Positions 36,001 to 42,000 are shown, counted from the first letter of the stretch. The stretch is 64,000 bases of DNA from an uncultured bacterium (GCA_963819815.1 CAWFXL010000001.1:1120001-1184000); one strand, 5' to 3'. Numbers: made by a program.

Positions 36001-39000
36001 GAAAGTGAAGCGGAATTCCATGGCCATGCTCCCCAAAGGAGGTCCCGAACTCATTAACTGCAGCAGACGTTGTTGAAGCAATAGACTCAGGATCACCCCA
36101 AACCCCTTTGTTACGAATAGTCATCTTAGCATAGACAATGTCGTACGGCACCTTGGGCTGCCCATACCGAAATTGCGTAATGCAATCTACCGTATGACGA
36201 AAATAAATCACCCGATCAGTAGGATTATCGTTATTCAAAAGCCTCAGATTCTTCCCATAAAAGAACTCAGGGAGGCGTAGACGCACTTCAAACTTAAGTT
36301 CGCTATCACCTGGATGAAACACCATGCTTCCTTTTTTAGGAGGCCCAGACGTCTCATCCTTTTTTTCTACGGCTTCTAGTTCATTGGTTGTAGGATTTTG
36401 TGCTTCTTCACCTGTATTGGTCTTCGCCTCCTCATGAACTTCTTGCTTTGCTGGACTACCTGTTGAAGAAGTTTGCTGGACCTGTTGAATCTTCTGAACA
36501 GGAGTTTCATGACCTGCTGCAGCGCCTTTCTTTATTGAAGGTTTATAGCTATGAGAAGATATGCTATCTTGAGCTTTTACGTAAGCATTTGAGCAGATGA
36601 CCCCAAGCCCCATTACTACCTCCAGGCAAAGACGCCGATTCATAAAAACTCCTCTGTGCGAGAACAAGAAACAATGAACACCAACGCTTGCATTACCCGA
36701 AGCTTACAGAACACTCTGAAAATCCACTGAAAAATAGACTTTTTTAGTGTGACAATCTCTCTAAGTTTATGTTAATATTTACGCGAGATCAACTTGATTT
36801 CATGTCCTACTCACTTTCCTACAAGAAGTAAAAAGGGAAATATTTCCCCATACTCTAAACTTACCAAGCAGGCAAAAATATGACCCAAAAACATCCTATC
36901 ATTCTTGGAGCGCACATGTCCATCGCAGGAGGCATCGAAAATGCCTATTTGAGCGGCGCTTCAATAGACTGTACGGCAATTCAACTATTTACACATAGCA
37001 ATCGGCAATGGGCAATCAAAGAGCTATCGGCTGACACCATAGAAAAGGTACAAACAGCTCAACAACAGACAGGCATTACCCACGCGGTAGTGCATGCAAG
37101 TTATCTTATCAATGTTGCCTCTACCGATGCCGAAACCAGAAGAAAATCGAAAAATATGCTTCATATGGAGCTCAATCATTGCGCAGCCTTGGGCATTAAC
37201 TTCCTTGTGCTGCACCCAGGATCAAACCCTTCAATTGAAGAGGGAAGCAAGCTCATCAGCGAAGCAATCAATGAAACCTTTGAAAAGAACAGCTCAAAGG
37301 TCACCATTCTCCTTGAAAACATGGCTGGCCAAGGCAGTCAAATTGGCTACCGTCTTGAGCAGCTTGCTACACTCAGACAAGAGATCTCTGCAAAAAAACG
37401 CATTGGCTTCTGTATCGATACGTGCCATCTATGGGCAGCAGGGTATGACTTTTCAGACCATACAGGATATCAGAAGGTCTTAAAAGAGGTGGATACTATC
37501 CTTGGAATTGAGCATATACATGCGATTCATCTTAATGATTCTAAACAAAAGCTCAATTCACAAGTAGATCGTCATGCAAATATCGGAGCGGGAACCATTG
37601 GCCTTGAAGCATTCAGGCTTATTATGAATGATCCTACGCTTAAAAATATCCCAAAAATTCTCGAGACCCCTGGCAAAGAGCTTCACGAGTATGCACATAA
37701 CATGAAAATACTGTTGGATCTTGTAAAGAGCTGAATTTAATAAGAACGTGTAGTTAAAGACCCGTATAATAGCTAAGAAGGAATTGTAGTATATATTACG
37801 AGTCCTTAACTAACACTTTCTTACAAGCAGTGCCTCACCATATAGGAAGTCTAATAACTATTGAAGGGAGAGAAAGATAGTTATTAAAGCTACACTAACT
37901 AGGAAGCAATTCTAAGTTTCTACGAATTTTGCCTAAAAAACAACAGTTTATCTTTCGCAACATTATAAAACAACACAAAAACTGCTATTTCCAGGCGACT
38001 ATTTCCAAAATAACGTATTTTTATTGTAAAAGCAACCACAAAGCAACAAGATTTACCTCGTGCGCTTTCTCATCATTGAAACAATATACAACCAACATCT
38101 CCGCCAAAGTTTTCTACCTGAACGACTACAGGGTGTCTAGCTGTTTTTAACATCACTTGGGTATACCAGTTTTAGGGTTCCCCTATATCAAAAGAGGATG
38201 ATTGCTTGGCCTTAAGAAATCTCACCTGAAGGCATTTTTTCTAAGGCAACTTTGGAAATAGGATGGGATTATGGGGCGAGAAAGAGATGGTACTAAGATC
38301 GTGATAGTTAAAGACCCGCAAATAGCAGCTAAGAAGGAATTGTAGTATACATTACGAGTCCTTAACTAACACTTTCTTACAAGCAGTGCCTCACTATATA
38401 GAAAGTCTAATAACTATTGAAGGGAGAGAAAGATAGTTATTAAAGCTACACTAACTAGGAAGCAATTCTAAGTTTCTACGAATTTTGCCTAAAAAACAAC
38501 AGTTTAGTTCCTGCATCGTCAAGCAACAACATAAAAAGGTGGGTACCTACGAGCATTTTTGTCCTTTGGAGTATTTTTTTGCACAAAACAACCTCTTAAC
38601 AACGCTATGTTGCTGCAGAAAAAGCTCCATGATTCTTCTTAAGACAGAGAAACACGGATCAAAAGTTCCCCAACGATGCCTTGTTGTACATCTAGGATAT
38701 TAAGAAACACCTATTACATAAACAATCAAGATCCAGAAAAGTTGAAGGATGAGACTTCAAAATGAACAGCATCTGACAATTTCATCATAGCTTTCTATAA
38801 GAGCTTATGTGATTGCACAAGTCTGCCTGTTTTTCTATGCCTTTTTAATGAGGCCTTGTATCGTCCACAAGGTTGTACAGATCTTTCATGTAGAAAGATA
38901 TAGATTGTAAAAGGGCAATACCTCAATAGAAACGGGTCTAGAGATGCACAACATGTACATAAAAAAATTTCATCGGTTACACAAGCCGATATAAACAAGA

Positions 39001-42000
39001 GCAATATGTCATTAGGTGGAAAATTCAGTGAGGTGGCTGATACTTTAAGATCGTGTAGTTAAAGACCCGTTAAATAGCTAAGAAGGAATTGTAGAATAAT
39101 TTTAACGTACGAGTCTTTAACTAACACTCTCTTACAAGCAGCTTCTTTAGAGGAAGTTTAATAACTATTGAAGGGAGAGAAAGATAGTTATTAAAGCTAC
39201 ACGCTATCAAAGCAATTCTAAGTTTCTAGTAATAGTGCACAAAAAACAACAGTTGGTTTTAGAGCACACACCGCAACAACAAAAAGGAGCCTTAGTTTTC
39301 GTTGTTTTTTAAATAGTTGGTCTTTTTCTTGTAAAAACAACCACTGCGCAACAAAAATACCTTTTGCGCACCACTAGCCGCACTTTCTTTCGAATGTGCT
39401 CATTTGTAGAATGTATTCGTAAACCTGTTTGGAACTCAAACAAGAGGGGTCGTGGACAAATCTTGTTGTGTATCACACACTACTATTTTGTTACGGGAAC
39501 TTCTTCATAGCATTCTACACGATCATCGGGCTCAAAATCACTAAACCCTTCTATCATGAAACCACATTCAAATCCCGAGTGAACTTCTTTCACTGCTTTC
39601 TTTTCACGTTGGAGACTCTTAATAGGGCCTTCACCAATCTTTTCCTTACCGCGGTACACCTTTACCTTACCATTACGTGTAAAGCGCCCTTCACGTACAA
39701 TAGAACCCGCAATAACACCAAGATTCTTAATATCAAATACCTTGAGTACTGTTGCTTCACCAATTTTCTTGGTAACCATTTCAACAGGTTTGCCTGATTC
39801 TAAGAGCGCCTCAACTTCTTCTATCAGCTTATAGATGATATCGAAGGTTTTAATGACGACACCTTTTTTGTGCACAAGATCCATGGCATTAGGTTGCACT
39901 TTTACTCCGAACCCATAAATATAGGCTCCTGTATCGGCTGCAAGCATAACATCACTTTCAGTAATATCCCCTACGCCAGACTGAATAATTGAAATAGCAC
40001 CATGTTTAGAAGTTAGACGGGAAAGAGATGCTGCAACTGCCTCGCGCGATGACACATTATCAGTTTTGAGAATAATATCGATATCTGCTTCTCGAGAAGC
40101 ACCAGCTTTGCGCAGCAGTAAGTCAGCTCGCTGCTGAGCAGCAGGGATGCCTTTTTTAATAACTTTTGACGTATGTACCTCAAAAAGATCCCCCGAATGA
40201 GGAAGCTCTGAAAATCCTGCAACTTGCACAGGCACCGAAGGTCCTACTTTTTGTACCCTTTTACCATCAGAAGTAACGAGAGAACTTACACGCCCCGTTG
40301 CTTCACCAGCAATAAAATAATCGCCAACCTTAAGAACACCATGCTGACAAATAACTGTGGCTACTGGGCCTCGACCCTTTTCAAATTTTGATTCTAAGAT
40401 GTACCCGCGAGCTGGAACCGTAACATTCGCCTTAAGATCCATAACTTGAGACTGGAGCACCAGCACATCAAGAAGATCATCTACACCTTGTCCCGTTTTT
40501 GCTGAAATCGGCATGACAATAGTCTGTCCGCCCCATTCTTCGGGAACCAAGTTATGACGCGCAAGTTGACTTTTAACCGCTTCTATTTGAGCAGGAGATG
40601 CTTTATCTATCTTGTTAATCGCTACAACCATAGGAATGCCAGCAGCTTTAGCTGCATTAATCGCTTCTTCTGTTTGAGGCATGATACCGTCATCTGCAGC
40701 TACAATGAGAATTGCAATGTCGGCCACTTTAATTCCACGTACACGTATTAACGAGAAAGCTTCATGGCCGGGTGTATCGAGGAAGATAACCCCGCCCTGT
40801 TTCGTCTTAACATCATACGCGCCTACATGTTGCGTTATGCCCCCTTTTTCACGAGAGGCTACACGTGTCTTACGGATAAAGTCTAGCAGAGTAGTTTTAC
40901 CATGGTCCACATGTCCTATCACAACTACTATAGGCAATCTTTCTTTCCATTCTCCAGCAGCCTCTTGAGAAACTAAGGGCATCTCTTTTGATTGCCGTGC
41001 TGTCTCTTTTTTTACCAAAGTAAGACCATGCACAGTAGCAAGGTCTCTAATTGTTGTTTCAGGTAAAAGCTGAGTCACCGGTGCTGCAATACCTTTCTTC
41101 AGGAGAGCAATAATAATTTCGCTTACAGGAACTCCCGCTGCTGCAGCAAAATCTCCTACCGTCATCGGCGCATCATATGCTGTTCCGGGCTCCAATCCAG
41201 GCTTCTTAGTTTCAGGTTGCTCAACAACCTTCTTTTGAATTACAGGAGTTGCAGCTTTCTGGACTGTCGGTTTAGCCTGTATGGTCGGTTGGCTGGGTTT
41301 TTGTGGAGCTTTTTTTTCTGGAGAAACTTTTTGAACTGGTTCCTGAGCGGCTTCTACTTTTTTAACTGGAGCTTTTTTAGCTTGTTCTTTTGGCTGTTCC
41401 TTAGATTCAGTCTTAGGAGATTCGATCTTAGGTTGTTCTTTTTGAGAAGCAGGTTCTTTGCTCACCGGTTTTTGGACCTTAGAACTTCCTTTGGTCATCA
41501 GCTTTTCTACGAGAGCCTGCGCTTCTGGCGGTACCAAGGCAATACTTGCCAAAGAATAGCCATGCTCCTTCAAAAGATCTATAAGCTCTTTATTGGTAAG
41601 GCCTAACTTCTTTGACAATTCATATACGCGTATCGCCATATTTTTTTTCCTTAAGTCATGCAACCAAAGATCTATTCAGTTTCTTCCTGAGAAGACTCTT
41701 CATGCTGAACATCCTCGTCACTATCTTCAAAAAGCTCTTCCGCCGTGGTAGCTTCATTTTTAACCAGATTGAGCTGCATCCCGGTAAGCTGGGAAGCAAG
41801 AGCAATATTTTTGCCCATCTTACCAATAGCTACCGAGCGCTGATCCTCATCAACCCACACATTTGCCGTTTTGTCATCAAGAATCTCAACACGATTAACC
41901 TCGGCAGGCTTCAGTGATTTTCTAATAAGCTCTTCTTTCGAAGTTGTAGCCTCAATGATATCGATCTTCTCAGCGCCAAGCTCACGCAAGATAGGCTTAA

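Follow-up and report, generated by a model that had tools for sequence, protein, structure and literature searches.

A candidate base-pairing small RNA of Dependentiae with tandemly repeated genes downstream of infB, and its putative co-evolving partner transcript

What is encoded by three direct copies of a ~170-nt element that lie between nfo and infB in an uncultured member of the Dependentiae? Members of this phylum live obligately inside protist cells, as parasites or symbionts, and we found no description of regulatory RNAs in Dependentiae in the literature searched. In the window (the whole stretch of 64,000 nt that was analysed, starting at contig position 1,120,001) the copies occupy positions 37741-37960, 38294-38506 and 39046-39254, the identity to copy 1 being 95% for copy 2 and 83% for copy 3. 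The three tandem copies of a preliminary description of this locus are real, the same coordinates and identities having been recovered. They are flanked by nfo (36880..37734, plus strand; endonuclease IV family, Pfam AP_endonuc_2, 8.7e-53), which is convergent with them, and by infB (39483..41663, minus strand; IF2, Pfam GTP_EFTU, IF-2 and IF2_N), located upstream on their own strand and adjoined by nusA (41672-42763, minus strand). The sole further match to the element in this genome (by blastn) is a perfect one of 22 nt at contig position 1001108.

The minus strand of the element folds at -56.1 kcal/mol (z -4.5, none of 200 shuffles as good), compared to -40.7 kcal/mol (z -1.3, 24 of 200 shuffles as good) for the plus strand, which confirms the earlier choice of the minus strand as the folding one. 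RNAalifold, applied to 25 copies, returned 28 pairs, and compensatory changes were seen in 8 of these. In helix P2 (37741..37824 in copy 1, minus strand) an alignment (A2) of 40 sequences from five families gave 18 pairs; of its 684 cells 86.5% are paired, compared to 34-51% with the partners slid, and 15 of the 18 pairs changed on both sides, though the arm sequences are entirely different between families. Three P2 pairs are mostly G-U (in 15, 16 and 21 of 25 sequences) and would become A-C mismatches on the other strand, which favours the minus strand as that of the RNA. The predicted fold comprises two independent domains, the 5' and 3' ends not being paired together. The 5' domain contains hairpin P1 (37851..37885 in copy 1, minus strand; 12 pairs, 5 with compensatory changes in the 25 copies) with the CU-rich loop B (37862-37877, 38418-38433 and 39169-39184 in copies 1 to 3); it is followed by a conserved GAAGCACUGCUU segment and by the long helix P2, which presents a 22-nt single-stranded loop A (RNA UACUACAAUUCCUUCUUAGCUA; 37770..37791 in copy 1, 38326-38347 and 39075-39096 in the others, all on the minus strand). 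Among the blocks of the RNA, only loop A is better conserved than the GAAGCACUGCUU segment. Overall, this analysis supports the interpretation of the repeat as a putative structured non-coding RNA encoded on the minus strand, with CU-rich loops complementary to Shine-Dalgarno-like sequences.

Each copy is preceded by the same promoter-like signal on the minus strand, located at 37915..37943 for copy 1 (TTGTTT at 37938-37943 and GAAACT at 37915-37920, separated by 17 nt), and at 38471-38499 and 39221-39249 for the others. The pattern TTGTTT-16/17-nAnnnT recurs at a constant place in 48 of 50 sRNA copies from five families, the -10-like hexamers (GAAACT, AAAACT) being weak and the signal not called by a generic promoter scan. 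In copy 3 the -35-like hexamer is preceded, at a distance of 22-23 nt, by a further motif, TTTTGTTGTTGC (39273..39284, minus strand), of which copy 2 has a variant (38523-38536, minus strand); it is conserved in families f1, f10, f15, f17 and f19, occurs exactly only twice in the 1.64-Mb genome, and is preceded by a T-run in the other families. With the 5' end set 6-8 nt downstream of the -10-like hexamer (the ends of this RNA and of the partner described below come from the promoter-like consensus only), the predicted transcripts are 37738..37908, 38294..38464 and 39046..39214, all on the minus strand. A covariance model matches them with 104.8 bits (copy 1, contig 1157715-1157860), 95.1 bits and 81.9 bits, respectively. 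No clear terminator was found for these genes.

The claim that the RNA is specific to the genus or its family, Babelaceae, did not hold. The underlying blastn counts were reproduced (15 of 41 genomes of the family, this one included, and all 9 of the remaining genomes of the genus, at 1-4 copies apiece), but the covariance model finds matches in 71 of 151 sampled Dependentiae genomes from six families (f19, 51/55; f10, 7/7; f15, 1/1; f17, 1/1; f1, 8/20; f12, 2/13), and a separate sample of the phylum yielded the same positive genomes. About every second Dependentiae genome sampled has the predicted sRNA gene, as 1-5 tandem copies per genome in this genus and as a single copy everywhere else. 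As the preliminary description had stated, no Rfam family corresponds to it: Rfam 15 gave no match at E<=1 in a cmscan of window positions 36500-40500 (at E<=10, four chance-level matches with E of 3-8 and 17.7-19.5 bits, compared to gathering scores of 70-93), and likewise none for the partner locus.

The perfect 22-nt match leads to that partner. Loop A of copy 1 is complementary at 22 of 22 positions to contig 1001108-1001129, the first 22 nt of a small putative transcription unit (contig 1001108-1001136; L031:3109-3137) outside the window, 157 kb from the sRNA genes and present as a single gene; copy 3 has a single mismatch, at duplex position 21, and the predicted duplex amounts to -34.7 kcal/mol. 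The partner consists of a conserved promoter-like signal, an AAGGAA Shine-Dalgarno, ATG or GTG, AAG, a C, and a short non-conserved ORF. Of 201 genomes, 56 have a single partner site detected by the 29-mer nAGCTAAGAAGGAATTGTAGTAATGAAGC (a reversed-pattern control detects none), and its only three extra matches, each with 3 mismatches, fall on sRNA genes of one genome. Outside this genus, 29 of 49 matching genomes have the 20-mer core at a second locus, which was an sRNA gene in all 26 loci inspected. In all 41 loci the partner signal TTGNNN-16/17-TANNNT has its end 5-7 nt ahead of nucleotide 1, and nucleotides 23-25 are ATG in 36 of these and GTG in 5, with AAG-C following. Beyond the first 29 nt the partner is not conserved, the ORFs (3-56 aa in 18 loci) being unrelated in sequence; pairing with the flank of the loop does not account for the conservation of nucleotides 23-29.

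The pairing was followed over 22 positions in 37 genomes, giving 763 Watson-Crick, 29 G-U, 3 A-C and 19 other cells (of 814; the genomes are related, and these counts overstate independence). Position 1 covaries (T-A in 9, A-T in 4, G-C in 9, C-G in 2), compensatory swaps are seen at positions 7 and 13 (A-T to G-C) and 15 (T-A to C-G), and none of 2000 random re-pairings of the genomes was as good. The consensus partner is carried by 44 of the 50 genomes that belong to both samples and are positive with the covariance model, and by none of the 20 listed negative ones. The remaining six were subjected to a prediction test. For two with divergent loops (G179 and G139) a wobble-aware pattern derived from each loop hit exactly one other site per genome, each having a promoter-like signal and ATGAAGC or GTGAAGC; for a variant loop (G205) no partner was found at <=2 mismatches; and in three genomes (G011, G023 and G103) the P2 loop is short, loop A is absent, and no partner was found. 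The covariation shows that co-evolution has maintained the complementarity between loop A and the opening 20-22 nt of another, predicted small transcription unit. Compensatory change preserving complementarity to a target, one of the marks of a trans-encoded base-pairing sRNA, is what we observed, the G-U tolerance fitting RNA-DNA pairing as well. The persistence of sRNA genes lacking loop A in three genomes implies that the RNA would have a further function outside this pairing model.

We consider it fairly probable, judging from the genome comparisons, that the two loci form a new pair of a base-pairing sRNA and a mini-mRNA (or anti-sRNA) whose ribosome-binding site is masked by the former, the sRNA gene being tandemly amplified in this genus. 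Each repeat would be a separately promoted minus-strand gene for a ~170-nt structured small RNA, and the partner RNA would start exactly at the complementary stretch that holds its AAGGAA. A duplex of ~22 bp would hide the partner ribosome-binding site up to the start codon, making the system one of an antisense sRNA with a mini-mRNA or an anti-sRNA; the duplex would block translation of the partner and probably mark both RNAs for joint decay or titration. With 1-5 tandem sRNA copies per single partner gene, the balance should move towards the sRNA.

The same pairing could be read in the reverse direction, which we regard as the less probable option, if one to be taken seriously: the partner would be the regulator, an sRNA with a 5' seed that switches off or sponges the structured RNA, whose activity (e.g. 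protein binding) would reside in the GAAGCACUGCUU segment and the base of P2. A conserved 5' end alone is the usual pattern of sRNAs with the seed at this end, and partner conservation is indeed confined to its first 29 nt; the structured core is kept without loop A in the three genomes where the partner is missing too, and GAAGCACUGCUU ranks next to loop A in conservation. On the other hand, the invariable ATG or GTG (41/41) followed by AAG-C favours a start that is translated over a mere seed, this genome showed no conspicuous target complementary to the GCACUGCUU block, and no protein partner is known, Hfq and CsrA being undetected in this genome (88% complete).

The preliminary description had viewed the CU-rich loops as general mimics of the 16S anti-Shine-Dalgarno tail that bind or sponge many ribosome-binding sites, i.e. 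a global translational regulator. Its observation that the loops are complementary to Shine-Dalgarno-like sequences stands for both A and B; as to loop A, the general role gives way to a 20-22-nt antisense to the start of one co-evolving transcript. We therefore hold the general role to be unlikely overall, and possible only for loop B (CUUUCUCUCCCUUCA), whose matches are limited to ribosome-binding sites of unrelated genes in several genomes. The survival of sRNA genes in three genomes without loop A or partner would argue that other targets must exist, and AAGGAA and GGGAGA occur 151 and 35 times, respectively, in the -18..-4 region of 629 starts, although AAGGA-type Shine-Dalgarno sequences being the commonest in the genome is a circular observation, as this gene set was picked by the motif. 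Against the general role, loop A is conserved over 22 nt, far longer than a Shine-Dalgarno, covaries with one specific locus, and beyond that locus has no better match in the genome than 16/22. Matches of 10 nt beside ORF starts show no excess of the target sense over the opposite one, either for loop A (15 versus 13 of 68) or for loop B (5 versus 5 of 33), only family f1 keeps loop B in its exact sequence, and the 16S tail of this genome (GGATCACCTCCTTT) is an ordinary CCUCCUUU.

An extension of the sRNA/mini-mRNA pair, which we find rather improbable, would turn it into a sensor of translation-initiation capacity, the partner acting as a decoy mini-mRNA with the lineage-consensus ribosome-binding site at its 5' end. 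The 30S subunit with IF2 and the sRNA, encoded beside infB, would compete for the decoy: at high capacity the decoy would be translated, leaving the sRNA free for other targets via its CU-rich loop and GAAGCACUGCUU core, and at low capacity the decoy would capture the sRNA. If true, this would be a dedicated RNA-RNA circuit reading ribosome availability, conserved across an uncultivated intracellular phylum, with the sRNA dosage tuned in this genus through tandem gene amplification.

It is very doubtful that the repeats instead belong to the nusA-infB transcript, as its 3' UTR or a processed tail with an effect in cis on that operon. In this genus infB does lie directly upstream on the same strand, and in one other locus examined (G024, family f1) the element comes after a GT4 gene, and this gene after the end of infB, all on one strand; against this, a conserved promoter-like signal and upstream motif accompany each of the three copies, the T-run precedes that motif in other families, conservation of the spacers between copies reaches no further than the closest relative, and in other families GT4 is immediately upstream of the element, infB being seen upstream in only one of those families. 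A DNA-level element (origin repeats, TAGTTA/TAACTA protein-binding words, or RNA-DNA pairing of the loop at the partner promoter region) is highly improbable: the repeats are indeed 3-5 kb from the cumulative GC-skew minimum (confirmed, in the 42001-43000 bin), the words recur in them and the wobble pattern cannot tell RNA-RNA from RNA-DNA pairing, but these words make up the P1 and P2 arms, which in other families differ in sequence yet stay complementary, G-U is tolerated over A-C both inside P2 and between the loci, no neighbouring recombinase or nuclease gene of the guide-RNA kind is present, and of the three one-mismatch matches to the DnaA-box consensus TTATNCACA in 37.7-39.5 kb none falls in the repeats, this region showing no cluster (the window has 89 matches at <=1 mismatch versus 70 +/- 9 expected).

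The family described here would be the first lineage-wide sRNA family for Dependentiae. It has a defined partner, with pairing supported by covariation between two unlinked loci, evidence rarely available for bacterial sRNA-target pairs. The partner is itself unusual, apparently a promoter with nothing behind it but a ribosome-binding site, a start codon and a disposable ORF. Through this pair, post-transcriptional control in reduced genomes would become directly testable, neither Hfq nor CsrA having been found in this one, and a clean covariance model can now be used for annotating Dependentiae genomes.

Several known classes were considered and rejected. Like 6S RNA (RF00013), the RNA is of similar size and widely conserved in its lineage, and a product RNA templated on loop A would equal the partner 5' end; yet there is no RF00013 match in the genome (E<=1) or the region, the 5' and 3' ends form no closing stem, the loop is apical rather than a central bubble, and the "product" has a gene and promoter-like signal of its own. 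For a CsrB/RsmZ-type sponge the GGA-rich sense would be the plus strand, but this strand is a poor folder on which the G-U pairs would become A-C, and CsrA (PF02599) was not found in this 88% complete genome. A guide or bridge RNA (IS110, IS200/605) disagrees with the flanks, nfo and infB here, a convergent nfo-like ORF of ~300 aa in the corresponding position at 4 of the 6 element loci examined (one of the three f10 loci, f17 and two additional f1 genera; judged from the look of the sequence, Pfam having been run on the nfo of this genome only), and GT4 upstream. The plasmid antisense systems CopA/CopT and RNAI/RNAII and the trans-encoded type I antitoxins of the IstR-1/tisB type likewise pair a hairpin loop with a target leader or ribosome-binding site over ~20 nt or more of perfect complementarity; in contrast, the Dependentiae loci are 157 kb apart on a chromosome and conserved across six families. 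In type I toxin-antitoxin systems the target RNA encodes a small toxin that is conserved and as a rule hydrophobic, and this assignment was rejected, as no conserved toxin-like peptide is encoded by the unrelated 3-56-aa ORFs of the 18 loci.

The C-rich-loop sRNAs of Firmicutes (RsaE/RoxS, with their UCCC loops, and the RNAIII hairpins) similarly pair a pyrimidine-rich hairpin loop with the Shine-Dalgarno region of their targets, blocking initiation with no need for Hfq. The Dependentiae RNA differs from them in lineage, has no sequence or Rfam relation to them, and would pair over 20-22 bp rather than by a short seed, with a single dedicated transcript that co-evolves with it and has a non-conserved ORF. 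In sponge or anti-sRNA pairs (ChiX with the chbBC spacer, RybB/MicA with 3'ETS-leuZ, GcvB with SroC) two separately encoded non-coding transcripts also titrate one another by base pairing. The known sponges, however, are by-products of other transcripts, with shorter and less conserved pairing, whereas the putative Dependentiae partner has its own conserved promoter-like signal and an apparently complete ribosome-binding site with a start codon.

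The three tandem ~200-nt copies described earlier in the 1.75-kb gap between nfo (window 36880-37734, plus strand) and infB (39483-41663, minus strand, with nusA beyond it at 41672-42763) are borne out by their coordinates and identities. The repeat search places copy 1 at 37741-37960, copy 2 at 38294-38506 and copy 3 at 39046-39254, all on the minus strand, the second and third being 95% and 83% identical to the first. By blastn, 15 of the 41 family genomes (this one counted) carry the element, as do 9/9 other genomes of the window's genus, at 1-4 copies apiece. The spacers between copies are kept only in the closest relative (the IF2 of the nearest relative is 97% identical); they contain no gene remnant, and none of a family-4 glycosyltransferase (GT4) gene in particular. 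In all six loci examined outside the genus, the RNA is directly preceded by a GT4 gene; four of these loci have a convergent nfo-like ORF after the RNA, and one shows the end of infB further upstream. A 736-aa ORF adjoining nfo (34457-36667, minus strand) matches no Pfam family at E<=0.001.

The element is an RNA encoded by the minus strand. For copy 1 this strand reaches a folding energy of -56.1 kcal/mol (z -4.5), which none of 200 shuffles equals, compared with -40.7 kcal/mol for the plus strand (z -1.3, equalled by 24 of 200). RNAalifold on 25 copies from 12 genomes gave two hairpins with 28 pairs, eight of them with compensatory changes: P1 (37851-37885, minus strand), which carries the CU-rich loop CUUUCUCUCCCUUCA (loop B), and helix P2 (37741-37824, minus strand), which closes a ~30-nt loop containing the invariant UACUACAAUUCCUUCUUAGCUA (loop A). 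Of the P2 pairs, three appear as G-U in 15, 16 and 21 of the 25 sequences; read from the opposite strand they would be A-C mismatches. The TAGTTA/TAACTA words, raised in the preliminary description as a possible DNA-level signal, are helix arms of this RNA; no DnaA-box cluster was found in the region by a single-pattern scan. The cumulative GC skew turns at 42001-44000, in the nusA / uracil-DNA-glycosylase region, which places either an origin or a terminus of replication at a distance of ~3-5 kb from these sRNA genes. Rfam 15 contains no family matching the element (4 chance hits only, E 3-8).

The proposed restriction of the RNA to the genus or family did not hold. Using the 20-nt core of loop A, we reached single-copy homologues in other families, whose P2 arms have quite different sequences with complementarity kept. 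Over a 40-sequence, five-family alignment, the 18 pairs of P2 are 86.5% paired (vs 34-51% with partners slid), and 15 of them show changes on both sides. A covariance model made from this alignment matches in 71/151 sampled genomes of the phylum (the "phylum" sample being the identical 151 genomes, not an independent draw): 51/55 in family f19, 7/7 in f10, 1/1 each in f15 and f17, 8/20 in f1 and 2/13 in f12. It did not find the RNA in the twelve remaining families of the 151-genome sample. More than one sRNA copy per genome occurs only in the window's genus. A pseudoknot between the conserved GUAGUA (upstream of P2) and UACUAC (loop A) fits f10 and f15 and is mostly mismatched in f1 and f19; it was rejected as a general feature of the RNA family.

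Although a generic promoter and terminator scan called none for the sRNA copies, 48 of 50 copies have a signal of the form TTGTTT, 16-17 nt, nAnnnT, constantly placed ~95-130 nt ahead of loop A (in the window's genus the -10-like hexamer is GAAACT). A further 22-23 nt before the -35-like hexamer comes the motif TTTTTTGTTGTTGC, kept in nearly all families; its sites in the window are 39273-39284 and 38523-38536, and it has only two exact occurrences in the 1.64-Mb genome. It may be a regulator-binding site. Each copy thus looks separately promoted, with predicted sRNA 5' ends near 37908, 38464 and 39214 and a predicted RNA length of ~170 nt. A search of sequencing runs for window 37700-39500 listed four DNA metagenomes, with small word shares, and no RNA run.

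Elsewhere in its own genome the element has a single match, 22 nt long and perfect, at contig 1001108-1001129 (L031:3109-3130). This site lies outside the window, 157 kb from the sRNA genes, and on its top strand it is complementary to loop A. Of 201 genomes of the order, 56 contain the corresponding 29-mer nAGCTAAGAAGGAATTGTAGTAATGAAGC, each at one such partner site; no matches were seen beyond these except three, with 3 mismatches each, that fall on sRNA genes of one genome, and the reversed pattern used as a control gave 0. The families with the 29-mer are those with the RNA, and the extra weak covariance-model matches in genomes G128 and G028 fall on the partner locus. The window's genus has 1-5 sRNA genes per genome, compared with one partner gene. 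Every one of the 41 loci examined has a TTGNNN-16/17-TANNNT signal that stops 5-7 nt short of partner nucleotide 1, and the partner transcript should therefore start with the complementary stretch. Nucleotides 9-14 are AAGGAA, the commonest Shine-Dalgarno type of this genome (in a gene set itself selected by Shine-Dalgarno motif), and the triplet at 23-25 reads ATG in 36 loci, GTG in the other 5. Beyond nucleotide 29 there is no conservation, and the ORF has 3-56 aa. In our genome the unit (contig C1 1001039-1001149, L031:3040-3150, top strand) comprises a TTGATT-17-TAACCT promoter-like signal, TAGCTAAGAAGGAATTGTAGTAATGAAGC and a 21-aa ORF, and runs antisense to a PLD-family gene (L031:3197-3817, minus strand) at that gene's 3' end. 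In most families examined it follows an RluD-like gene and converges with the PLD-family gene; in the window's genus an ankyrin-repeat gene replaces the RluD-like gene.

The complementarity of loop A and partner is maintained by compensatory and wobble changes. Across the 37 genomes that have both loci and 22 positions there are 763 Watson-Crick pairs, 29 G-U, 3 A-C and 19 others, the latter mostly at duplex positions 1-2. The 29:3 excess of G-U over A-C settles which strands pair: the minus-strand RNA on the side of the window, the top strand on the side of the partner. Covariation is seen at position 1 (T-A 9, A-T 4, G-C 9, C-G 2); A-T has become G-C at positions 7 and 13 in one genome, and T-A has become C-G at position 15 in two. 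Random re-pairing of genomes did as well in 0 of 2000 shuffles, a figure that is not a probability, since the genomes are related. The predicted duplex has 22 bp and -34.7 kcal/mol; RNAcofold treats a duplex in a closed loop as a pseudoknot and artificially opens P2, so its ddG is not meaningful. The consensus partner occurs in 44 of 50 model-positive genomes common to both samples and in 0 of the 20 model-negative genomes listed. The six model-positive genomes lacking it served as a prediction test set. In G179 and G139 the loops differ at several positions, and the wobble-aware loop pattern matches exactly one further site in each, bearing a promoter-like signal and ATGAAGC or GTGAAGC. G205 has no partner at up to 2 mismatches. 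In G011 (L263), G023 (L264) and G103 (L267), P2 has a short loop without loop A, and the 29-mer is also absent; these homologues retain GAAGCACUGCUU and the base of P2. The structured RNA thus survives without loop A in three genomes and has another, partner-independent function, probably in the GAAGCACUGCUU block or the CU-rich loop B. A search for targets of the GCACUGCUU core gave chance-level 9-10-mers only.

These observations establish a structured minus-strand RNA family and a second conserved locus, and the conserved start codon favors the reading of the partner as a translated target. Both loci would be transcribed from their conserved promoter-like signals, and the complementary stretch would form the extreme 5' end of the partner RNA, this free end letting the full helix form with the closed loop. 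Within the duplex, everything from the Shine-Dalgarno sequence to the start codon would be hidden, and as a result initiation at the mini-ORF should be blocked and the decay of both RNAs probably coupled. Neither Hfq nor CsrA was found in this genome (88% complete).

The preliminary description had taken both loops for mimics of the 16S rRNA tail, which is an ordinary GGATCACCTCCTTT. Loop B may act as such a general anti-Shine-Dalgarno element. Its matches are unrelated, generic ribosome-binding sites only, no dedicated partner was found for it, and its sequence is not conserved outside f1. For loop A this reading gives way to the dedicated partner with which it co-evolves; beyond the partner, no site in the genome matches it at >16/22, and ORF starts show no enrichment of sites that match it over 10 nt. 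Partner nucleotides 23-29 (AUGAAGC) may also pair with the sRNA 5' end (GCUUCAU), as sequences from f1, f15 and some of f19 would allow; f10, however, is without that 5' end, and the GUG/GAG variants are uncompensated. The ribosome-binding site of the PLD-family gene (contig C1 1001814, minus strand; TAAGAAGGAATAGAAATGAAAAGC) resembles the partner 5' end and was considered as the true target, but rejected: the resemblance is confined to this genome and was not seen in the 17 other loci. 6S RNA, CsrB-type RNA, a type I toxin-antitoxin and a guide RNA of a mobile element each fail on a defining feature, and SRP RNA, RNase P RNA and tmRNA are located elsewhere in the genome.

Two side observations may be recorded. 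Self-folding of the partner RNA reaches z<-2 in 7 of 40 loci (G083, G096, G118, G100, G013, G029 and G183; e.g. L092, L094), the mean being -15.5 vs -13.9 kcal/mol for shuffles. In these seven, the conserved 5' end is paired by a CU-rich segment located 30-80 nt further down, in a few with a T-run shortly after it (9/40 loci overall have a T-rich tail). The arrangement resembles a terminator or a self-sequestering hairpin; as a general feature it was rejected. ARAGORN also reports, at contig C1 470678-470755, a "tRNA-Stop" whose TTA anticodon would read UAA; this may be a suppressor tRNA, or the call may be false.

A targeted literature search found nothing on regulatory RNAs of Dependentiae / Babeliales, and broader searches gave nothing on the phylum among the papers listed. 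A base-pairing sRNA is an already known kind of system. New here are a dedicated partner predicted to be a bare ribosome-binding site with its own promoter, the order-wide co-evolution of two unlinked loci, and the tandem amplification of the sRNA gene.
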